A stretch of 64,000 nt of DNA, from contig JAVLKG010000004.1 in the NCBI GenBank assembly GCA_032128875.1, positions 416,001 through 480,000 on the forward strand. The letters are read 5' to 3'. The translations under genes were made by a program, and so were the position numbers. This document shows, in pieces, positions 18,991 through 33,769 of the stretch (the first letter of the stretch is position 1; each line of letters opens with the position of its first letter). A model generated the notes under the pieces. It searched no databases. It worked only from the letters and a program-made list of their open reading frames with translations, and was not told the origin of the DNA. This DNA is from Candidatus Melainabacteria bacterium 17Bon1m (GTDB taxonomy: Bacteria; Cyanobacteriota; Vampirovibrionia; Obscuribacterales; Obscuribacteraceae).

Positions 18991-21606
18991 TTAAATGCTG
19001 TGCATCTCTTCGAGCAGTTTCTTCTTGATCTTTGCCTTTGGCGGGTCGGCAAACTCGTGCGATCTTAGCTTGAATGTTCCGGCAACGGAACCGACGCGAT
19101 AGCAGAAGAAATTGCGTTGTTCTTGACCGACTACCCTGTCGATATTCAATTTCTCTTCGTCTGAGATAAGTTCGAAAGTGGGTGATGTATTCACCTGATT
19201 GAAGAAGTTGCCGATCGTGCGGTGTTTGATCTTTCGACCATCTACACGGAACATCTGTGGTCCAACCGTGTCGGCGTCTTTTTTCGCTAGTGCAAAGGCA
19301 AGCAATGTTCCAACGTTGATGATGATTTGGTTTCTGAAGTCCTCGGGCAAATGCTGAAGTGTTTTGCAACACCCTATGAATGCAATCTTGAACTTATCAG
19401 TCTCCTGTGTAAGAGCTTCGATTGTTTCTTTCTCAATGAAATTGTTCATCTCGTCGAGATAAATCGAGCATGGATTTTGCCTTTCTTCATCATCATCGGA
19501 TAGGCTCATTGCAGCTTGCTTGATTCCGGTCACAATAAGTGAACCGAGCAGGTTTGCATTCTGGTCTAGCTGTCCTTGCGGGATGCGAACCAAAAGTACT
19601 TGCTTGTGTTCGATAAGATCTTGCAATCTCAAATCACTGACTGGCTTCGTAAGAATCGGTCGTATGCGCGGATCACTAAGCATTGGTGTTACTCGGTTGA
19701 GAATCGGCTCAACCCAAGTGATCCACTGATCGGTTCTGGCAAGTTTCTTATACTGACCCCAAGAGTCGATCAAGGTTGCGTATTCGGTGCGTTCGTTTCG
19801 CTTACGTTCCACACCCTCTAAAAGGATGTCTCGGAAATCATTGTCTTGCAGCAGAGTCGGCAAATCGACCAGGGTCTTGTTGTTTGCCATTAGTAAGATA
19901 GCTGCATTGCGCAGAATGTTGGCGGTTTGCTGGCTCCACTGACTTTGCGAGCCCTGAGGCTCAGTGTAGATTGCTTTGAAGCCATGAACAATTGCAGAAG
20001 CAGCATCAATAAAATTGACGTTGTCTTGCGGTTCTAACGGGTTGTACGAAATAAAACCACCTTTGTAAGTCGGATCGATTATCATCACGCGTTTCGAAAG
20101 TTCGCTGCCTTTTGCATGCGCCGCAGTCCATTTCGAAACAAGTTCAGTTAGCTCTCCATCAGAGTCGATGACCACAACCGCTCTGTCGGCAGACTCGATA
20201 TCGTGGCAGACCATATTGGCGAGCAGCCGAGTTTTACCTTTGTCTGAGCCGCCCATCACAATCATGTGCGGATTGTCTGCGCGTGACTCTGGTGTCATAG
20301 CCATTGTTTTCGGCACCCATGGCTTCCAGATTCGCCACTCAGCGCGCGTACCAAGCGGAACCGAGCCGCGCCTAATTGGCTTAGCCCATTCACTGACCAT
20401 CTTATTGTGCTGAGACTTGTATTGCGAAGGAATGTACTCTTCCTTCGACATGCGGTTCAATTTTCCGTGCGGATTGAAAATCCAGAGCATGACAGTTGCT
20501 ATAAGAATTCCAATTCCGACCAGGACAGCAGCAAGTGTCATTAAACGATCGGATATTTCTTTCCTGGAAAGCCCGCTGTTTGGATCCAGGCATTGCAGGA
20601 AGTACGTCAGAATGTTGGTACTCGGCGGCGCATTGGTCCTAGGCGTTGTCGGAGGTTGTCCAAAACCACCTTGTCTCAGAACATCTTCGGAGATGGATTG
20701 GTCGGCAAACCATTTGCCTTCCACAGTCGCAATTTGTTGGCGCAGTTTGAAAACTTTTGCTCTGCTTGTGAAGGTTCCATTCAAATGATATTTGCCGAGC
20801 TGGTCTTTCTGAATTTGCGCGGAGTACAGCACTGGATAGCCATCTTTCAGACCATTGGTGTAAAACTGTTTTTCCAATCTAATTTCGTTTGGAGATACGA
20901 ATTGTCCTTGAATTCTCCATGACTTTCCATTGTTAGCGCTCAGGGCTGAAAGAGCGGTACCGTCTCTGTTGAGCATTAGGTCCCAATTGCTTCGGTCCAC
21001 TGACGAATTGGCGCAATGCACCTTGTACATGCCACCAACTTTTGGAGTATCGAAGGCGTTTAGGAGGTTGGGTAACACGGAACCGCCTTGCGCGGCTGGC
21101 TCAGGAGTATTGATGCGGGACGCCATTGTTCCAAGGAAAAAGCCGAATGCGATGAAGCACGTGCAAACGATAGCAGCAGCAATCGCGATTACTCTATTTT
21201 CTAAAGCACCAATTCTGGTGCTGCTGCGCCGAGCAATTGTGTTTGGACTCTGACTGTCTAGATTGTTACGGGAAATTCTCGCGTTCTTGGGAGCAGAATC
21301 ACTTGTTCTAGAACCAAGTAAGTCCGAAAGTGCGCTGGCTTCCTTGGTACCCTCATTAAGATTCAAACGCTGGCTGACCGGTGGTTCATTAAAAGCGAAC
21401 TCTTGCCTCGCTTGTGAGGGCGAGGTTGCGAAAAAGTCATTCGACTGCGGCGGGGCAGAGTTTTGACCGCTGGGTGCCGGCTTGGCGTTCGCAAGCATTG
21501 GCATTGACGTTGCGGCAAACTGGGATATGGGCGTTCTGCAATTCGCGCACAGGGTATCCTCGCTGCGAAGCAAGTTACCGCAGGTCTGACATATAAGGAT
21601 TTCCAA
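18991..21606 (-). CDS. VirD4/TraG-like type IV coupling-protein ATPase with an N-terminal zinc ribbon and two TM helices
   Basis: CQTC..CANC at the N-terminus; HMIVMGGSDKGKT Walker A; SYNPL; ANLLGSLIV; IYLDE Walker B; INVGTLLAF. Confidence 0.8.
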   Translation of the reverse strand: MEILICQTCGNLLRSEDTLCANCRTPISQFAATSMPMLANAKPAPSGQNSAPPQSNDFFATSPSQARQEFAFNEPPVSQRLNLNEGTKEASALSDLLGSRTSDSAPKNARISRNNLDSQSPNTIARRSSTRIGALENRVIAIAAAIVCTCFIAFGFFLGTMASRINTPEPAAQGGSVLPNLLNAFDTPKVGGMYKVHCANSSVDRSNWDLMLNRDGTALSALSANNGKSWRIQGQFVSPNEIRLEKQFYTNGLKDGYPVLYSAQIQKDQLGKYHLNGTFTSRAKVFKLRQQIATVEGKWFADQSISEDVLRQGGFGQPPTTPRTNAPPSTNILTYFLQCLDPNSGLSRKEISDRLMTLAAVLVGIGILIATVMLWIFNPHGKLNRMSKEEYIPSQYKSQHNKMVSEWAKPIRRGSVPLGTRAEWRIWKPWVPKTMAMTPESRADNPHMIVMGGSDKGKTRLLANMVCHDIESADRAVVVIDSDGELTELVSKWTAAHAKGSELSKRVMIIDPTYKGGFISYNPLEPQDNVNFIDAASAIVHGFKAIYTEPQGSQSQWSQQTANILRNAAILLMANNKTLVDLPTLLQDNDFRDILLEGVERKRNERTEYATLIDSWGQYKKLARTDQWITWVEPILNRVTPMLSDPRIRPILTKPVSDLRLQDLIEHKQVLLVRIPQGQLDQNANLLGSLIVTGIKQAAMSLSDDDEERQNPCSIYLDEMNNFIEKETIEALTQETDKFKIAFIGCCKTLQHLPEDFRNQIIINVGTLLAFALAKKDADTVGPQMFRVDGRKIKHRTIGNFFNQVNTSPTFELISDEEKLNIDRVVGQEQRNFFCYRVGSVAGTFKLRSHEFADPPKAKIKKKLLEEMHSI

Positions 21607-21815: not shown

Positions 21816-22883
21816 TTGGGCTCGATGCAGCAAAACAACAAGGAGGTGACTGGTCCTGCGTTTGCAGAGTACGATATCCCTGATTCAGGCTTTCTTCGGG
21901 GCAGAATGGCTCTAACTTGCTTGCCGCCTAAAAATACTTTGTATTCATCGCTCTTGGCGGTGGTTTTGGCTGCTGGTTTTGTCTTTTCATTCGCCGCTCA
22001 AGCTTATCGGCTTTCTGTTTTGAGCGATCCGCACCTTACTGTTTGGGCGTGGGAGCGCGATGAGGACTTGTCCTATATAGACCCGACTAAAGTAAGGGTT
22101 GCGTATTTTGCAGGAACCATTTATGTACGTGGTTCAAGTGTGAGATTTCGTCCTCGCACTCAGAAGTTGAAACTACCTAAAAACGCATTGGCATTTCCTG
22201 TTTTTAGAATTGAGAGTATTCGCACTAAGAACGTTTCGAACGAACCTCATTGTTCAAGTTTGAGGGAACAGGAGCGGGATGAAGGTTTAAATGTTCCCAG
22301 CGTTGAAGCTGCGAGTTTTGTGGCAAAGACAATCGCCGCGCGAACGGAGAAATTACAAGAGACCAATCTTCAACGGTGCGACGTTCAAGAGAGAAACATT
22401 CAACAGAGTAATTTTCAACAGCGCACTTTTCAAAAGAGAAACACACACAAACACAATTTCAGCAGCAACATAGTGCAAATCGATTTTGATGCTCTCGAAG
22501 ATGAGCGGCCGTTCTACACGGTGCTGCTCAAAAATCTACGAAAAGAACTTCCTACTGGCACGAAGCTTTCTATCACTTCGCTGGCGTCATGGCTACTTGC
22601 AGATAAGTGGATAGAGCGCGGAAGTGCAGACGAAGCGGTCGCGATGTTGTTTTCCATCGGACCCGGCAAGAATGAAGTACTTTCCGTCTTGAAGAAAAGA
22701 ATTCTCGATACCGGCTCCGACATTCCAGTTGCTATAGGAATCTCAGCAAGTGAAAATATGACCAACAAAGTTTTATTCGAATCGGGTGTCCAACGAAAAA
22801 CCGACAATCTGTACATTTTTAGTTCACGACCATGGACGGAGCAGCGCCTCCGTTCGATCACATGCGAGGCACTAGCGAAATGA
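21816..22883 (+). CDS. DUF3142-like protein (TIM-barrel/GH18-like), exported; start uncertain
   Basis: TVWAWERDEDLSYIDP, QIDFDA..ERPFY..LL, LSITSLASW, DEAVAMLF motifs. Confidence 0.7.
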   Translation: MGSMQQNNKEVTGPAFAEYDIPDSGFLRGRMALTCLPPKNTLYSSLLAVVLAAGFVFSFAAQAYRLSVLSDPHLTVWAWERDEDLSYIDPTKVRVAYFAGTIYVRGSSVRFRPRTQKLKLPKNALAFPVFRIESIRTKNVSNEPHCSSLREQERDEGLNVPSVEAASFVAKTIAARTEKLQETNLQRCDVQERNIQQSNFQQRTFQKRNTHKHNFSSNIVQIDFDALEDERPFYTVLLKNLRKELPTGTKLSITSLASWLLADKWIERGSADEAVAMLFSIGPGKNEVLSVLKKRILDTGSDIPVAIGISASENMTNKVLFESGVQRKTDNLYIFSSRPWTEQRLRSITCEALAK

Positions 22884-25333
22884 CGAGATTCACAAGAAGC
22901 TTGATTGCTACTTTGCTGTCTCTTTCCTTTATATCAATTCCGACACCGCCGGCGAAGGCGTGTGCGCCTGACCTCGCTTATGCAATTTTGATTAATGGTA
23001 ATCATCCGGATTTGCCGTTGAAGCTCTTTGCCGGTGGAAATATTGGCATCGTGCAGCCAGGATGGGCGAAGTCGTATTTGGTAGTAGCCTACCGTTTGCT
23101 TTCGGGAAAGCCGCTTTCGAAGTTAGAGCAAGACAGTGTTTTGAACCTCTGGCACGAGCGAATCAAGAATGGATCTCGATTTGACACCAGCATCTTTCAC
23201 GATCCAAAAGATGATTACATGGCACTTCGCTGCAAAGCGATTGGTGATACAAAGAAAAACACCGATGAGTTGAGTTGGAAGATGGACTCGTATGTGTACG
23301 AATTTTCCATATCTGATTCTTCTTTCCAGCTTGCGAAAGAGACACTCGCAAATATTCTGAAGAAATATCCGCCAAAGTCTCAACAAGTCAAAGACTGGGT
23401 AAAGGCACAGGACGGTATTTTTGGAATTGGAACGGCAAAAGTTATCATTCCCACCGCACTGCCAGCGTCCGCCGATGGGCTCCTGCAGGAAGCCCGAACT
23501 TACCAAATTGCGGCAGGAAATTTTTATAGTAAGCGATTTGAAAAGGCCGCTTCTCTATTTCAAACTCTGGCTGATAAACCGAATTCTAGTTTAAACAAAG
23601 TAGCATCGTATATGGTGCTGCGTTCGAAGTCTAATGAGATACTCCGCGGCAAGGGGACAGGCGATGCGGAGGCGGTGTCTGTACAAATACAAAAAGCTGC
23701 CGACAAGGCGACGAAGACGTCGGAGCGAGAGCAGATTCTCGATCTGCTGAGACCGATCTCCTACTTAAATCATTCCGCACCGGAAGTTGTGAAGCTGCTG
23801 GCGACTATGATCAGTGATGGATCTAGCAAGCGATTTGGCTCCGATGTTGGAGATCTGACTTTTCTTTTGGATGGAAACGCTCCTTTGTGCGGATTGGATG
23901 TGCAGGGACCGACAACCTCTCTGCCGAGTTCCACTGCAAGTTCAGTGAATTCCGCCGGCGCTGGCGATGGTTCCGCTTCAAGCTCAAACGAATCTGATTC
24001 CCCTCACCCAGCTCCCGATGTTTTGACAGCACATGATATTGCTGATTTCGTTTGTACTGTTCAGCGAACTAGCTTCCTAGACTGGTCGAACACAGACGAA
24101 GAAAGGAAGAAAGCAAGAGAAGAAGGACTGCGAGTGGCGAAACACGCTCGCGAAGTGTGGAGCAAGAAAAAGAATGATGTTTGGCTTGTTGCAGCTCTTT
24201 CTGGTTTGGGAGTGAGTTTGCAAGACGACAAAGAATTATACGACGCAGCTATAAAAACGCCTGCGAGTTCTCCTGCGTTTCTTACTTGCAGGTTCTATGT
24301 TGTTGATTCGTTGATTTCTCAAGGAAAGAGGGAGGAGGCGCGCAAACTTTTATCGCCTATATTGGCTGCCACTAATTTGCCGCCCAGCTCGCGAAATCTG
24401 TTTTCGATGCAGATGGCTGCCGCTAGTAGCTCTATCTCAGATTACTTGAAATATTCTGTTATCAACCCGCCTGAAATTTTGCAGTCGAACAACGATTTAG
24501 TCTCCAGCAAATTTTATAAGCTAGAGGCTGCGAATGTTTATCAAACAGAAGCACCTGGGCTTGATGAAGATTGCGCGCTTGATCTGAGCCGCAATGCTCC
24601 TATGTCCACCTGGATGAAATTTGCTCAAAGCCAGCCTGCAAGCTCTAAATTCAAGGCAGTTGCTGTGCGGTCTGCATGGACTCGTGCACAGCTTTTGCAG
24701 AAGGAGACCGATGCAGCAAAGCTTGAAAATGATCTTGCAGCAACCAATCCAACTCTTGCGGCTGCGGTAGCAAAAATCAAAAATGCGCCGGCTGGACCAG
24801 CAAGACAGTTTGCAGTTGCATGCCTGGTTCTGCGCAATTATGGAATGACACCTTATTTGCGTGGTGGTACAGAACGGCACGGTGAGCCTATTGGCGAGTT
24901 TGACTATTACAACAATAATTTCTGGGTGCCGCTGCCGGTTAATGAACCTAAAGGTGATGATGCGATTAGTTACGCGTACAACGACTTTGTTGGTTATGTC
25001 GGAGATGCCGAGGTCACAAGTAAAGTAAAAACCTATTTCCAGCCGGGTGTTTCGCGTTTGCTTTCTGAAGCCGAGAAGAAAGCTGCAGTCGCTGAGCGCG
25101 CGCTGATCCTGAAGAATCATCCGTCGCGCTTTTTTGGACAGACTGTTCTCGATTGGGCGAAAGCGCATCCTAAAGATCAAGATGTCCCAGAGATGCTTTA
25201 TCGCATTGTGAAACTACCAAAGTGGTCGGAGCAAACACCGGTTGGAAGCGAGTTTTCAAAGAAAGCATATTTTGCTTTGCACAAAGGCTATCCCGGCAAT
25301 CCATGGACGAAGAAAGCCGTTTGCTACTATTGA
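22880..25333 (+). CDS. Large secreted alpha-helical hypothetical protein, partner of DUF3142
   Basis: ATGA overlap with the upstream stop; signal peptide ending AKA-C; GNIGIVQPGWAKSYLVVAYRLL; C-terminal HPKDQDVPEMLY..YPGNPWTKK. Confidence 0.8.
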   Translation: MTRFTRSLIATLLSLSFISIPTPPAKACAPDLAYAILINGNHPDLPLKLFAGGNIGIVQPGWAKSYLVVAYRLLSGKPLSKLEQDSVLNLWHERIKNGSRFDTSIFHDPKDDYMALRCKAIGDTKKNTDELSWKMDSYVYEFSISDSSFQLAKETLANILKKYPPKSQQVKDWVKAQDGIFGIGTAKVIIPTALPASADGLLQEARTYQIAAGNFYSKRFEKAASLFQTLADKPNSSLNKVASYMVLRSKSNEILRGKGTGDAEAVSVQIQKAADKATKTSEREQILDLLRPISYLNHSAPEVVKLLATMISDGSSKRFGSDVGDLTFLLDGNAPLCGLDVQGPTTSLPSSTASSVNSAGAGDGSASSSNESDSPHPAPDVLTAHDIADFVCTVQRTSFLDWSNTDEERKKAREEGLRVAKHAREVWSKKKNDVWLVAALSGLGVSLQDDKELYDAAIKTPASSPAFLTCRFYVVDSLISQGKREEARKLLSPILAATNLPPSSRNLFSMQMAAASSSISDYLKYSVINPPEILQSNNDLVSSKFYKLEAANVYQTEAPGLDEDCALDLSRNAPMSTWMKFAQSQPASSKFKAVAVRSAWTRAQLLQKETDAAKLENDLAATNPTLAAAVAKIKNAPAGPARQFAVACLVLRNYGMTPYLRGGTERHGEPIGEFDYYNNNFWVPLPVNEPKGDDAISYAYNDFVGYVGDAEVTSKVKTYFQPGVSRLLSEAEKKAAVAERALILKNHPSRFFGQTVLDWAKAHPKDQDVPEMLYRIVKLPKWSEQTPVGSEFSKKAYFALHKGYPGNPWTKKAVCYY

Positions 25334-25470: not shown

Positions 25471-28400
25471 TTAGCGAATACCTTTCCAGCGTCTGTATGC
25501 GGCAGTACCGGGTATGTTTGCCGCAGCGCTGTCAGATGGCGCCCATCCAGCGACGAATCCATCGCGACCGCTCATCATTTTCATTAGTCGTTGTGGACTG
25601 ACTGGCTGCGCGTGTGATGGATTGCCTCGATCAGGATCGCCAAGGATGTAATTGCCATCGGCATTTCTGCCGGCTACATATATGTAGTGCCGGTTGCCGG
25701 TGTGCGGATTGATGACGCGTGCGACAGCGGAGTGCCCTTGATCTAATTCAGCATTAAGATCTTCCATGCCCTTCTGCCCGAATCGATTGTACTGATACGC
25801 CTTTGCTTCCAGTCCGGCTTGGCGCAGCTGTCCAGCCATCGTGTCGAGAGAACCGCGATAACCGTGGCTGAGTGTTCCGGCCAGTGCTTTGAACCCTCTC
25901 ATCTCTTGACCGTATTGAGGTGGGCGTCCTTTGAGGTGATCGCTGACCATCATGGCCATGGAAAACGCCGAGCAGCTGTGTCCGTCGTCTTGATGTGCAT
26001 AGAACCTCGAGCGGTCTGAGATGTCTCGCACAACTCGACCTGTCGGGGCGTTACGAACGGAGCGCTCCGGAACCAGATCATTTTCTGCCGGTTTTTCAGT
26101 CTTACGGATTTGTGGAAGCTCTAGTGGTTGTTTCACCGGTTGACCGGGTTGTCCGATTACGCCGTCATTGTTTCGATAAACGATGTCTGATCCGACATTA
26201 TGTTGGCGCCACAGCGGGCGCGAGTTGTTGCGAAAGTCATTGTTTTCAATGATTGAATCATTTACACCACCATTTGTCGGGCTTCCTCCTCCTAGAGAAA
26301 TTCCGGCTAAATGGCTGCCCTCAACAACATTGCCCCTCACTTGAATGCGTGAAGTTAATTTGCCCCTGTGTTCCGATGCTAATTCAATGCCGTAGTTAGA
26401 GTTCTTGATGTGGTTGCCTTCGATTATGACGTCGCTGCCACCATCGACATATATTCCAGCACCGCTGCGGTCTCCCTTATATGCTGGGTTGCTCTTTGTA
26501 TCAATATTGAAGACTGTATTTCCGGCGATGATGCCATTGCGAGCGCGGTCGATGCCGGCGCGTCCCACACCCTCGTATCCGATCACGTCGATACCAATGT
26601 TATCGTTATCGTGGACTTTGTTGTTAATAACGCGGAATCCATCGACATTTCCATTAATTGCAATCGTTTCGCTTGAACCTAGTTTGTTGTGATGAACTTG
26701 ATTGCCCGCGATTATGATGTTGCGCATCGGTTCTGCGGAAGTTCCTCTTACCACGATGCCATGCGCATTTTTTGAATTCTCGATATGGTGGATATTGTTG
26801 TTTGTGATTGATATATCGCGGCTTGTTCCTTCGACTTTGATTCCCGTCGGCGTGTCACCGCCTCTGACGTTGCGAATTTCGAATCCATCAATCTGGACAT
26901 TGCGCCTGTTAGAAATATCTATTGCACTGCCGGAGGTCCTTTGTCCGTCCAAATCAATAATTGCTTGCCCATCGCCGCGCAGGCTGATGCTGTCTTTCTT
27001 TATTTGCAGGCGCTCTTTGTAAACGCCGGGATGAACTTTGATAATTGAGCCTTCTTGCGCCTTGTCGATGGCGGCCTGAATGCTTTCGCCCTGTCGAACT
27101 TCGACGATCGGTCTGCCTGCGTCGTTTTGTCTTTGCAGCGGGTAGCGTTCACTGACTTTGCGTTCGCGTTCTCTTTCGGTGATCTGAGCGATTCTTTCTG
27201 GTGTTTTATCAGGCGTTCGCTCTGGCGTTCGCTCCGGTGTGCGTTCCGATTCACGCGCCGGTGCATGTGCACTAGCGCGTGACCATCCTCTTACGTCACG
27301 ATCAACGTCTCGTATGTATTTGCCTTCGTCATTGCCGTCCTTCCCTGGAGCGTACTTGGGGATAACCTTGGCGACGGTGTCTCTGCCTGCTTTCAGGAAG
27401 TGTGTGCCGTCCTGCATGAGTTTGAACCAGTCGCGCGCTCCTTCGGTAAAACTGCCATACTGCCTATAGCCGCCATCGCCTTTTATGTTGCCGACGCTAT
27501 TGTTACGATGGGCCGCACCGTGTTTTCCAAAACCTGATTCTGATTTGAAGAATCCCAGAGTCAGCGCAGGATCGATACCGTATTCAACGCCAAGCTTGTA
27601 CAGGTGTTGGCCGAATGTTAGCTCTCTGCCTGTTTCTTGATCTCTGATTCTCTCTTTGGCTGCCGGTGACTTTGCATCGCGCAGAATTTGGTCGATTTTC
27701 TCAGCGCTTATAGACGGCGAGCCTCTCAGCATCAACGAGCCATCTCGCCCAGCTTGTGGTGCGCGAACTGCTCTCATCTCCGGATCAATACTTTCTTGAT
27801 TGATGTATCTCTGAGCGACTGTTCCGTCTGGTCCTGGTTTGCCTCGCCCGCGTTTATGCGGTGTCGAGTCGCCACGTTTTGCACGACCACCTTCGTCATA
27901 TTCACTTGTGGCGGAGGGTATACCGTCTTGCTCGGCTGAGCGTCTGGTACCGCGAGCACTTGTTCTTTGCACGCCACTTTCAACGTCACGACGCACTCCG
28001 GGCGCCGTTTCGCGCGGACCTTGTTTTTGTGCGATCTCTTCTGGCGAGTACATCTGGAATGTATCGCCGACCTTGAAATGATTACGCCCGAGGCGCGCAA
28101 ACTCACGGTTTCGAATTCGAACCGCTTCCTGTTGCATCTCCTGCTGGGACATCTGGATTTTGCCTTGGCGCTGCATCTCTTGAAGTGCCTGATAAGGCCC
28201 CCAACCTTTTTGAAGTGAGGGAAGCTCCATGTTTTGATACTTCATGCTGCCGGGTTTTTCTGCACTACCTGGCTGGTCTGTCACTTTCGTGGTTTCGATA
28301 GAACCCTTGAATGCGCCGTCCTCAGTGTATTGGAATTCAAATTTCCTATTGCTCTTCTCGCTTTCAACAGAAACAGCGCGCAATTTACCGTCCCGTTGTT

Positions 28401-29592
28401 TTTCGAAGGTGTATTTCGCACCGTTTGTTGTGGTGGCACTGTTCGTCTTTTCATCGACGATCACACCGGCTTCCTTCAAGCCTTCATAACCAGTCGACGC
28501 ACCGATAGCAATAACTGCTTTATCTCTTTTCGATGGTGAATTTGCACCATCGAAAGATGGGTCGTTCAGACCTTTTTCACCAACTGTTCCTTTCAAGACG
28601 TATTGCACGGCGTCTTTCAGTGCTTTTGAATTTTTCAGATCTGTGGCAACGTGCCTATCTTGCGAACCGACAAGATCCAAAGCCTTCTTGACTCTTGTGG
28701 CTGCATCACCAGCGGTGCTCAAACCTGAAACGTCAATTCCTCTTGCTTTCAATTCGTCTGGCGTCAGAACTTTTAGCTGTTTCTTTCCATCAGCCATTTC
28801 GCGCATTGAAATTGCGCCGTTGCCGGTGAGTTCTGTTGTTTCATGGACAACTCCATCTGCTCTATCCTTGAATGTTTTGTGAATAGTGACGGCGCCATTT
28901 TCTTTTGCGACTTGTTCAGATTGCAGTTTATCTTTGTTCTGTCCAGGATCGAAATTACGAGAAAAACTTTCGGTAATTGGTGTTCGCAGATATTTTTCTG
29001 TGGATAAGCCATTTGGACCTTTGCCGGTTTCGAAAGTACGCTCGAAGCTGCGCAAATCTTTGCCTGCAGAGTATTTCTCACCAATTAAATGATCTTTGCG
29101 TCCTTGATACTCTTTGGCGACATCTTCTCTGCCATCTGTGCGGCTGCGTACTAGCTTTGCCAGTCCATCTTTGCGCTCGGAGGATTTGTAGGTACACTCT
29201 GCTCCGTTTGGTCCAGCAGTTTGGCACTGCAATCCTTTGTCGTCTGGCATCGGCAACATGCCGATGCCGGCAAACCTGGCCTCGCGCTCGACACCAGGCA
29301 TTTTTTTAGATCCGAGCCACATGTTATCCATCATGGCGCGATACGAGTTGAAGTCGCCACCCATGTAGCCGGCTTCTCTCACTGCGTCCGGACTGCCAGG
29401 CGCAAAACTGGCGGCAATCACGGACTGATTGAAATTTACCCGCGAACCGTCGCTGCCCGTTCCTTTATATACGTCGAACTGCAACTTCTCAGCAGCAACG
29501 GCAGCTACTTCAACTGCTGGTTGCTGTTCGACCGGACGCGGAGATTCCACTGCGCGGGCGGGCGCAGCCTCTGTTTGACCTCTTTCGCTCAA
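25471..29592 (-). CDS. Multidomain protein: unknown N-terminus, LysM-like module, glucosaminidase/lysozyme-like domain, right-handed beta-helix, C39-like cysteine peptidase
   Basis: QKGWGPYQAL..FKVGD; SISAEKID..YGIDPALTLGFFKSESGFG..GNIK..YAP; parallel beta-helix repeats (IxNNxVHxN); SCSAFSMAM..HYIYVAG..DP. Confidence 0.8.
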   Translation of the reverse strand: MSERGQTEAAPARAVESPRPVEQQPAVEVAAVAAEKLQFDVYKGTGSDGSRVNFNQSVIAASFAPGSPDAVREAGYMGGDFNSYRAMMDNMWLGSKKMPGVEREARFAGIGMLPMPDDKGLQCQTAGPNGAECTYKSSERKDGLAKLVRSRTDGREDVAKEYQGRKDHLIGEKYSAGKDLRSFERTFETGKGPNGLSTEKYLRTPITESFSRNFDPGQNKDKLQSEQVAKENGAVTIHKTFKDRADGVVHETTELTGNGAISMREMADGKKQLKVLTPDELKARGIDVSGLSTAGDAATRVKKALDLVGSQDRHVATDLKNSKALKDAVQYVLKGTVGEKGLNDPSFDGANSPSKRDKAVIAIGASTGYEGLKEAGVIVDEKTNSATTTNGAKYTFEKQRDGKLRAVSVESEKSNRKFEFQYTEDGAFKGSIETTKVTDQPGSAEKPGSMKYQNMELPSLQKGWGPYQALQEMQRQGKIQMSQQEMQQEAVRIRNREFARLGRNHFKVGDTFQMYSPEEIAQKQGPRETAPGVRRDVESGVQRTSARGTRRSAEQDGIPSATSEYDEGGRAKRGDSTPHKRGRGKPGPDGTVAQRYINQESIDPEMRAVRAPQAGRDGSLMLRGSPSISAEKIDQILRDAKSPAAKERIRDQETGRELTFGQHLYKLGVEYGIDPALTLGFFKSESGFGKHGAAHRNNSVGNIKGDGGYRQYGSFTEGARDWFKLMQDGTHFLKAGRDTVAKVIPKYAPGKDGNDEGKYIRDVDRDVRGWSRASAHAPARESERTPERTPERTPDKTPERIAQITERERERKVSERYPLQRQNDAGRPIVEVRQGESIQAAIDKAQEGSIIKVHPGVYKERLQIKKDSISLRGDGQAIIDLDGQRTSGSAIDISNRRNVQIDGFEIRNVRGGDTPTGIKVEGTSRDISITNNNIHHIENSKNAHGIVVRGTSAEPMRNIIIAGNQVHHNKLGSSETIAINGNVDGFRVINNKVHDNDNIGIDVIGYEGVGRAGIDRARNGIIAGNTVFNIDTKSNPAYKGDRSGAGIYVDGGSDVIIEGNHIKNSNYGIELASEHRGKLTSRIQVRGNVVEGSHLAGISLGGGSPTNGGVNDSIIENNDFRNNSRPLWRQHNVGSDIVYRNNDGVIGQPGQPVKQPLELPQIRKTEKPAENDLVPERSVRNAPTGRVVRDISDRSRFYAHQDDGHSCSAFSMAMMVSDHLKGRPPQYGQEMRGFKALAGTLSHGYRGSLDTMAGQLRQAGLEAKAYQYNRFGQKGMEDLNAELDQGHSAVARVINPHTGNRHYIYVAGRNADGNYILGDPDRGNPSHAQPVSPQRLMKMMSGRDGFVAGWAPSDSAAANIPGTAAYRRWKGIR

Positions 29593-29765: not shown

Positions 29766-30164
29766 CTAAAAATAGATGCCTATAACCAGGCTAATCATTG
29801 TGTAGACGCTCAACGCGATTAATACAACGGTAATAATGAAAGCAGACGTCCAAAAGACGTGCTCTCCAGCGTCGTGAATGCGTTTCATGCGGCGGTGATA
29901 GTCGATAGCACCGCCAGTCAATCCGAGAATTCCGAGTGCCATCATCGCAATTCCGACCTCGCGCGGATAATGCAGAGTGGCTTGGAAATGTCCTGAGCGA
30001 ATCATGTCGTGCATGAATTTGCTCAGGGTAAAACCAAATCCAATCAAGGTTAAACCCGTTCGAATCCAAGCCAAAAGCGTGCGTTCGAGCGCAAGTGTTG
30101 TCCGCATTTTTGCGAGTTCGAGACCTTGATCAGGTTTCGCAACTACTGGAGCCTCATCGCTCAT
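29766..30164 (-). CDS. DUF202/YidH-family membrane protein
   Basis: RTTLALERTLLAWIRTGLTLIGFGF signature. Confidence 0.88.
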   Translation of the reverse strand: MSDEAPVVAKPDQGLELAKMRTTLALERTLLAWIRTGLTLIGFGFTLSKFMHDMIRSGHFQATLHYPREVGIAMMALGILGLTGGAIDYHRRMKRIHDAGEHVFWTSAFIITVVLIALSVYTMISLVIGIYF

Positions 30165-30634
30165 TAATTACTCTCTGGACCTTTCTTGGCTTCATCAATT
30201 ACGAGCGTTTCCGAGATGCTCTTTTTGAGAACCTGAAATGTGTCCCACAGCTCGTCGTGAAGTTTTTCTGCTGTTCTGGTGGCATTGATGAGCTTGAGCT
30301 TTGTGCCTTCAAGGTGTCGGCTATCCGGTGTGCCCCTCGATTTTGAATAGGCTTTGTCGACTTCCTCTAACTGGCGCAAAGCTTTAGTCAAATCACGCAC
30401 AATCATTTTGCTTTTTTCGGATGATTGAATGATGAAGAAGCCTGTCGAATTCGGCTGTCCCTTCAAATTCATAAGCATCGTTTGTTCGCGGTCAAACTTT
30501 CCCTGTGCGTCAGCTCTTGCTCCGTCTGTTGTGGAGATTGGTGCGATAACCAATAGGGCGGCGGCCAAAAAAGCACCCGACTTAATAAGGGTGGTTGTGC
30601 CTTTGCTCCAAAAGGATTTAGTGGAACTCCTCAT
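30164..30634 (-). CDS. Secreted hypothetical protein
   Basis: Signal-peptide-like N-terminus (ARA-DA); its stop overlaps the DUF202 start by 1 nt. Confidence 0.75.
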   Translation of the reverse strand: MRSSTKSFWSKGTTTLIKSGAFLAAALLVIAPISTTDGARADAQGKFDREQTMLMNLKGQPNSTGFFIIQSSEKSKMIVRDLTKALRQLEEVDKAYSKSRGTPDSRHLEGTKLKLINATRTAEKLHDELWDTFQVLKKSISETLVIDEAKKGPESN

Positions 30635-30773
30635 TGTTTGCTCCCGCTTTCATATTCTGTGACTTTGGGAGTTTACCAAATTGAAGACCGCTGAAATTTG
30701 GATGCCAAGCTTTTGAGACAGAAATCGGCTTGCCAAGCGCTTTGGTGAAAGTCGACTGGACGATCTTCGTTTG

Positions 30774-30801
30774 GAAAAAAGGTCGTTAACGGTCTTTTTT
30801 C
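30774..30801. repeat. Dispersed 28-bp palindrome, copy 2
   Basis: GAAAAAAGGTCGTTAACGGTCTTTTTTC between divergent genes; identical to 50082..50109. Confidence 0.9.
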
Positions 30802-30850
30802 TAAGTCGATCTACCACTGGAGTTCGAGAAAAAGGCAGATGTAAAGCGGG

Positions 30851-33712: not shown

Positions 33713-33769
33713 CGTAAAAGAGCCGCGCATGCGGCTCCCTGCAAGGGAAGTGCATGCGCTTCCACTACG
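33713..33769. repeat. REP-like inverted doublet (CGTA-flanked family), copy 2
   Basis: CGTAAAAGAGCCGCGCATGCGGCTCCCT-GCA-AGGGAAGTGCATGCGCTTCCACTACG, between convergent genes. Confidence 0.7.

Follow-up and report, generated by a model that had tools for sequence, protein, structure and literature searches.

How does a protein built of putative cell-wall hydrolase domains leave a cell that gave it no signal peptide, and whose wall is it meant for? The question is raised by a gene for a 1373-amino acid protein in a 64,000-nucleotide stretch (hereafter the window, in whose numbering coordinates are given) of contig JAVLKG010000004.1, positions 416,001 to 480,000, from Candidatus Melainabacteria bacterium 17Bon1m of the order Obscuribacterales. 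The host is an uncultured, non-photosynthetic relative of cyanobacteria. Members of its order, commonly encountered in water, soil and treatment plants, have been characterized as versatile heterotrophs. Sequence comparison places the gene in a real, lineage-restricted and modular family, in which a constant chassis carries swappable wall hydrolases. Together with structure prediction it brings out the chassis, the catalytic residues, the exchange of cargo, the accessory status of the gene, purifying selection and a family-wide absence of signal peptides. We think it just probable that the protein is an exported, modular lytic multi-enzyme aimed at the walls of other cells, whether prey, competitors or dead cells. 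The family was not found described in a literature search, which had most subscription papers and supplements outside its scope.

The open reading frame (ORF) has a TTG start, with AAGGTG four bases upstream, and shares this start with its orthologues in the genus. Independent contigs from four runs carry the gene with zero base differences and zero gaps; since they match over its whole length, the multi-domain fusion is not an assembly artefact. An initial annotation, made from the letters without database searches, had proposed the ORF together with a multi-domain map. Both are confirmed, and its domain limits lie within ∼30 bases of those found here:

25471–29592, minus strand: whole gene, leaderless modular hydrolase of 1373 amino acids (ORF; genus orthologues)
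29275–29592, minus strand: hydrophilic leader, residues 1–106, disordered by structure prediction; putative candidate for an export signal
28765–29232, minus strand: predicted single-layer beta-meander, residues 121–276, of RxDGL-type hairpins
28288–28707, minus strand: predicted helices and second short meander, residues 296–435, present as two copies in longer homologues
28021–28245, minus strand: GWGPY module, residues 450–524, conserved core of the family and perhaps a highly diverged LysM
27742–28020, minus strand: R/G-rich linker and conserved extension, residues 525–617, accompanying the lysozyme-like domain
27271–27741, minus strand: GH73-like glycosidase of the lysozyme superfamily, residues 618–774, with catalytic Glu685 at 27538–27540
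27118–27267, minus strand: charged linker with short PERT repeats, residues 776–825, varying among orthologues
26161–27114, minus strand: right-handed beta-helix, residues 827–1144 (Pfam Beta_helix, E 7e-16)
25528–26016, minus strand: papain-fold peptidase of C39/C39_2-like type, residues 1193–1355, with Q1201, C1207, H1302 and D1319

Scanned uncut, the protein gave only two weak Pfam matches. Cut into domains it gave Beta_helix as listed, Glucosaminidase at 4.4e-5 (below the cut-off) and Peptidase_C39 at 0.13, and the cut module and leader gave no Pfam match. No membrane segment was found in the protein, a single-sequence search of the Protein Data Bank (PDB) returned 0 matches, and scans of the locus for sigma-70 promoters and terminators gave nothing over chance. 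The PERT linker had been called a tandem array; the repeats are there, but as only two exact copies and two degenerate ones (residues 786–800; Tandem Repeats Finder, 1.9 copies of 12 bp).

The glycosidase had been recognized, with a putative catalytic Glu in KSESGFG. This motif begins at residue 683, and E685 is invariant in 11/11 aligned glycosidase domains. A profile of these 11 matches phage Gp29 (9vvp, 1e-5), a phage cell-wall hydrolase (8yxk, 8e-4), 6fxo (0.07) and goose-type lysozymes; we take 8yxk to be the Ecd09610 glucosaminidase. The YA(S/T)D motif of glycoside hydrolase family 73 (GH73) appears here as Y747-A-P followed by an invariant Asp five residues on, with the required aromatic residue present and the spacing different; the YAP/WAP form also occurs in 8yxk and 9vvp. 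Counted along the profile alignment (whole-sequence E 0.072), E685 aligns with residue 116 of the 6fxo chain. That structure is Staphylococcus aureus AtlA-gl, in which E116 is catalytic and E116A abolishes activity (PMC7170848; here and below, statements on cited papers extend to the excerpted parts of their text), and the Glu had thus been placed correctly. The relative P0022 passes the PF01832 cut-off, at 30.6 bits.

The peptidase had been read as C39-like, with Cys, His and Asp motifs, and a papain-fold catalytic set is indeed present: Cys, His and Asp are invariant in 14/14 aligned domains, and Gln in 13/14. A profile of the 14 matches leader peptidases of transporters (E between 8e-4 and 3e-3; 6mpz 8e-4, 3k8u 2e-3). 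The Gln-x5-Cys ... His ... Asp-Pro set is present, and its four residues line up with those of 6mpz and 3k8u; the top match of the profile, a designed repeat protein, was discarded as spurious. Many relatives carry PF13529, and the domain is also present in short proteins without a leader, which number in the dozens and in some cases include LysM. No fusion to an ATP-binding cassette (ABC) transporter was found, nor any ABC exporter among the scanned window neighbours. By sequence the domain appears closer to the stand-alone C39_2 type than to the canonical transporter C39. Because neither C39 nor C39_2 is grouped with the peptidoglycan-cutting papain families (PMC10318531), we do not assign peptidoglycan as its substrate. 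One relative, P0071, is a leaderless fusion of a C39-like and a GH75 chitosanase-like domain, which hints at possible fungal or algal walls among the targets.

Pfam confirms the right-handed beta-helix called earlier, and Atlas scores it 0.95–0.97. It is widespread, with 2820 relatives at E <= 1e-20, the best 120 of which were used for counts of residues and signal cores. At least eight acidic residues (E975, D995, D1002, E1007, D1015, D1050, E1070 and E1074) are retained in 77/77 of the distant relatives among them, which suggests catalysis or metal binding. Matches in the PDB covered the N-terminal cap or short stretches only, and no solved relative matched beyond these. The NCBIfam label NosD was rejected as a generic beta-helix match far under its cut-off.

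The N-terminus, at first held to be unrecognized, proves recognizable as a disordered leader and a confidently predicted beta-meander. In an AlphaFold model of this part, built on a 20-row alignment, residues 1–106 are disordered (predicted local distance difference test, pLDDT, < 50) and residues 121–276 form a twelve-strand meander (pLDDT ∼90), followed by the helices, the second meander and the module. The fold matches of the meander are MORN-type axonemal proteins and OspA (best Z 11.6, root-mean-square deviation (rmsd) 3.2, 155 residues aligned); judging by the model, this is a likeness of arrangement and not of function. Hairpins recur every ∼26 residues and their number is variable, an 81-residue insertion of further hairpins being present in 4/7 orthologue rows.

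Folded alone, the GWGPY module is predicted as two helices flanked by single bridge residues (pLDDT 75). The initial annotation had called it LysM-like, and this was not confirmed at significance: the Pfam scan gave no LysM match at E <= 10, hhalign comparison with the 11 LysM domains of this genome gave 1% or less, and a global GWGPY–LysM score of 6.8 fell inside the shuffled range (maximum 9.8). Searches of PDB sequences, PDB folds and viral folds found nothing significant; the best fold match (Z 3.5) is not a LysM, and the LysM 5k2l scored Z 3.2 (rmsd 3.1, 48/49 aligned). Titles naming LysM make up 2/50 of the weak fold-match rows, and six further rows presumably hold one. An indirect chain to LysM through three GEGP[W/F] modules gave 80% (partly circular) and then 26%, and the first Atlas match, LysM at 0.84, is a lead only. 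That the module is a LysM is thus plausible but unproven.

A GWGPY profile matched 37 clusters among 1.84 billion proteins. Two are repeat artefacts lacking the module, which leaves 35 representatives, several of them fragments. Ten of these have GH73-like, GH25 or amidase_3 domains (two with an M15 motif as well) and two further ones have C39 with or without the beta-helix; the rest show phosphoesterase, metallopeptidase, papain-like or MshEN-like motifs (the last two called by custom patterns), or nothing recognized. Within the order the module occurs in 35/107 genomes, all of one family, and the chassis of meander plus GWGPY module was found only in one Obscuribacterales family. The cargoes it carries are GH73-like, amidase_3, GH25, M15, 3D, C39-like and metallopeptidase domains. 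Relatives with the common N-terminus or module and swapped catalytic domains had been predicted, and they exist in other genomes; inside this genome there are none, its sole paralogue (C2:754503) sharing the glycosidase domain.

Full-length orthologues occupy the syntenic site in 7/12 other genomes of the genus, and none was found in four others that are 77–86% complete. In the remaining one (G005) the gene is cleanly missing from this site, with the flanking genes 25 bp apart, and it is therefore accessory. Locus L026 is 90–94% identical in the shared parts and lacks residues 541–790, the whole glycosidase cassette, having lost with it the 525–617 extension that P0012 and other orthologues retain; five other orthologues have an extra ∼100-residue domain after the module. 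At L027 an amidase_3 (E 1.6e-42) takes the place of the GH73-like domain, which is present in its close relative P0012, and the L028 cargo consists of C39, a weak 3D match and amidase_3. The ratio of nonsynonymous to synonymous substitution rates against L026 is 0.016 for the module, 0.02 for C39, 0.08 for the beta-helix and ∼0.2 for leader plus meander; against three orthologues it is ∼0.19–0.21 for the leader and 0.02–0.03 for the C39-like domain. By this measure every domain is under purifying selection.

Other members of the family vary further. Residues ∼1140–1290 of the L027 protein, and P0020 and P0057 likewise, have an extra domain between module and amidase that matches no PHROG profile; we assume that it resembles a SleB-type wall hydrolase. 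A second group (L029–L036; 1900–2700 amino acids), not found in the host genome (G000), has only meander and GWGPY module in common, with C-termini matching FHA and, weakly, ART-PolyVal and ATLF-type domains. In P0026, P0028, P0029, P0042, L086, L087 and L092 the module is followed by an MshEN-like motif (weak NCBIfam match, E 0.019), a pairing that could reflect regulated or pilus-linked export. Distant GWGPY modules also lie within open frames of ∼9000–9900 amino acids in G042:C1, G044:C30 and G045:C1.

The initial annotation saw no Sec signal, and a crude hydropathy rule, an 11-residue mean of at least 2.0 within the first 45 residues, upholds this. Among window genes the rule was positive for 7/8 of exported type and 0/4 cytoplasmic ones; the best mean of the studied protein is 1.18, with no hydrophobic core. 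The trait is family-wide, as a signal-like core occurs in 0/36 module carriers and 0/55 C39 relatives. For the beta-helix it occurs in 67/74 distant versus 1/41 close relatives (after 3 and 1 rows, respectively, with missing N-terminus were dropped), so that a domain that is Sec-exported elsewhere has been set behind hydrophilic leaders in this lineage. That signal peptides have been systematically lost from enzymes normally exported by Sec points to an export route shared across the lineage. The swapping of domains between species and the missing normal export signal suggest that these bacteria attack other microbes by an undescribed export route.

Two N-terminal motifs were considered as a common export signal. 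The first, ‘ASxxLxxDAY’, was rejected: the plain pattern was not enriched, its matrix was not enriched genome-wide, and a weak enrichment in hydrophilic proteins (14/152 versus 6.5 shuffled) was followed by a score of 2.65 versus 2.45 shuffled on 13 held-out representatives. The second, [LFM]-P-x-[LVIF]-x-[ILV], occurs within the N-terminal 100 residues of 13/113 hydrophilic G000 proteins that have neither signal nor membrane segments (two of these were known before the pattern was set); internal windows gave 1 and 1, and shuffles 2.2. From these counts it is a candidate lineage-specific export or chaperone signal. Examples are C11:118061, C11:122698, C9:230209, C5:337766 and C18:41914. G000 also has many leaderless extended-LysM proteins (C11:118061–124497, C3:227831–230197, C16:24390, C12:31364), and C11:118061 has, by eye, EF-hand-like repeats and a calpain-like end as well.

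The sheath of a type VI secretion system (T6SS), the flagellar/type III secretion protein FlhA and the T-type VirB4 were not found in the host genome, which is 93% complete. Present are two VirB4 clusters of TraG/TraC type that include large membrane proteins, one cluster having its own coupling protein, as well as three further coupling-protein-like genes, three secretins and pilus ATPases; a VirB4-type match was obtained in 30/30 family genomes. The likeliest route would be the chromosomal machinery of the family that resembles a type IV secretion system (T4SS), a guess by elimination that we make tentatively. Two further genes of the window were considered in connection with export and immunity:

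18991–21606, minus strand: orphan VirD4-like coupling protein, given as context only (Pfam; 3.9 kb from the hydrolase gene)
30164–30634, minus strand: 156-amino acid exported protein with no Pfam family, an unnamed core gene (59/60 family genomes)

The orphan VirD4-like protein has a zinc ribbon at its N-terminus and Walker motifs that look intact. This coupling protein is found in 52/60 family genomes, with an ATPase domain 57–88% identical in most, and was not seen adjoining the homologues in L027 or L028. The upstream exported protein was rejected as an immunity protein because it is a core gene of the family. Across the compared loci no small co-oriented gene was consistently found 3′ of the hydrolase gene: the gene that comes next is convergent in the window, L023, L026, L027 and L028, and DUF6745, of which no mention was found in the literature, is the next gene in L024 and L025 and appears as a 146-amino acid piece in L021. 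All 28 scanned neighbours look like ordinary genes of the chromosome, and no phage family was detected in them. Elsewhere in the window, a DUF3142 gene and one for an 833-residue exported helical protein (21816–25333, plus strand) stay paired in the genus orthologues, and 30–38-base elements at 30769–30803 and 33726–33763 are repeated elsewhere in the genome, at which contigs break.

We propose that a lineage-specific chassis of disordered leader, beta-meander stalk and GWGPY module carries exchangeable cargo outwards. The protein would be made in the cytoplasm, where peptidoglycan is absent, so that no immunity protein would be needed, and would exit by a Sec-independent route that reads its N-terminal part. 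Outside, the GWGPY module may bind glycan, Glu685 would cut the glycan strand, the beta-helix may bind or cut an acidic surface polysaccharide, and the Cys peptidase would cut a peptide or protein layer.

Several points weigh against aiming the protein at other cells. No predation or antagonism by Obscuribacterales was found in the literature. The four RNA runs that have the gene give 29–47 kb contigs of flat depth, which is DNA-like and uninformative on expression. Pfam scores fall below cut-off for both Glucosaminidase (PF01832, 24.6 bits versus a gathering threshold of 30.2) and Peptidase_C39, and 25/35 module carriers lack a recognized peptidoglycan glycosidase or amidase; since some have a phosphoesterase, a metallopeptidase or a weak cyclic di-GMP-binding motif, the module is not confined to enzymes that act on walls. 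Close relatives of the beta-helix form one clade by descent and are not independent, so signal loss may have been a single event, and only 4/42 of them have a source name that places them in this lineage. A common N-terminal signal was not found, the first motif having failed its held-out test and the protein lacking the second. Finally, because T4SS-like genes occur in all family genomes, their co-occurrence with the gene is uninformative and shows only that a route exists.

The best-surviving alternative, which we regard as improbable, makes the protein an autolysin or a remodeller of the cell's own wall, capsule or biofilm matrix that reaches the envelope by an unusual route. Layouts of LysM plus hydrolase are typical of autolysins, and purifying selection on all domains, a locus syntenic in the genus and the lack of a consistently adjacent immunity gene also fit this reading. 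The gene is nevertheless dispensable, being absent at the G005 site and its module confined to 35/107 genomes; the cargoes exchanged differ widely in their chemistry, the chitosanase-like domain on a C39 relative being one of them; and the ordinary envelope proteins of this genome do carry signal peptides.

Less probable again is a surface fibre or adhesin, with the meander as stalk, the beta-helix and GWGPY module binding, and the C39-like domain processing the protein itself or assisting export as in type I systems. It draws on the transporter leader peptidases (6mpz, 3k8u) being the nearest solved relatives of that domain, on the loss of the glycosidase in L026, and on C39 lying near the N-terminus of giant Omnitrophota proteins (10.1101/2023.11.21.568195). 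Here, however, the C39-like domain is C-terminal or internal, without ABC fusion, and recurs in short leaderless proteins by the dozen; the gene has no ABC exporter beside it, and full catalytic amidase and GH25 domains take the place of the glycosidase in relatives. The least probable alternative, a cytoplasmic store that has no secretion machine of its own and escapes solely when cells lyse (by self-lysis or by phage-like or holin-dependent release), would account for the missing signal peptide, the endolysin and tape-measure PHROG profiles that match the glycosidase domain, and the failure to find the T6SS sheath, FlhA and T-type VirB4 in a 93% complete genome, but it sits poorly with the ordinary, phage-free chromosomal neighbourhood, with a leaderless trait that spans many unrelated cargoes across the lineage, and with a disordered leader that is itself under selection.

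A lytic multi-enzyme sent against other cells has partial parallels. In the X-Tfes of Xanthomonadales, variable peptidoglycan glycohydrolase or peptidase cargo is borne on one common signal-peptide-free recognition part, and the genes are dispersed in a chromosome with a VirD4-type coupling protein (PMC6536674), all as here. Unlike X-Tfes, this protein has its common part at the N-terminus and centre, several cargoes per chain and no adjacent immunity lipoprotein, and the T4SS-like clusters are of TraG/TraC type. It also lacks their C-terminal XVIPCD, for which there was no Pfam match, the C-terminus being the C39-like domain and the Z of 3.1 between the module and 7mu9 lying in the noise range. 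Polymorphic toxins likewise combine a constant N-terminal trafficking-like region of beta-hairpin repeats with exchangeable C-terminal enzymes (PMC3482391). Their key distinguishing feature, a linked immunity gene, is absent here, so the family is not a polymorphic toxin system by the definition in that text, though organized alike; moreover, no orphan cassettes were seen beside the gene, and the meander is probably far too short for an RHS shell.

GH73 glucosaminidases and two-domain lysins such as AtlA-gl and Clostridioides difficile Ecd09610 have the catalytic Glu at the same profile position, and among them an uncharacterized N-terminus precedes a glycosidase and a Cys-His-Asp peptidase (PMC7170848, PMC9405191). 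The present protein differs in having YAP-x-x-D for YA(S/T)D, a C39-like in place of an NlpC/P60 peptidase, an extra beta-helix, and a Gram-negative, chromosomal and non-phage setting. Vampirovibrio chlorellavorus, a predator of the same class, has been proposed to pass hydrolases through a T4SS (PMC4451040). That system is T-type, a VirB4 family not found in the host genome, and partly plasmid-borne; the prey is an alga, and no effector family is defined in that part of the paper. Giant wall-degrading proteins of Omnitrophota are also multi-domain, bear C39, come from uncultured bacteria and are read as predation tools (10.1101/2023.11.21.568195), but they have predicted signal peptides and N-terminal C39, whereas this protein is much shorter and leaderless, with its C39 at the C-terminus.

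The domains of the protein lend themselves to expression and assay one by one, with no need to culture the host, and its chassis can serve as bait for the export machine; the beta-helix family, with thousands of members and no characterized relative found, is a target for enzyme discovery. A broader proposal, which we put forward as unlikely on present evidence, is that Obscuribacterales are unrecognized predators or antagonists that send leaderless modular effectors through chromosomal T4SS-like machines by an N-terminal signal, with no need of immunity. In that case their repertoire may be large and comprise the chassis family together with short LysM, C39-like, GH25 and beta-helix proteins.

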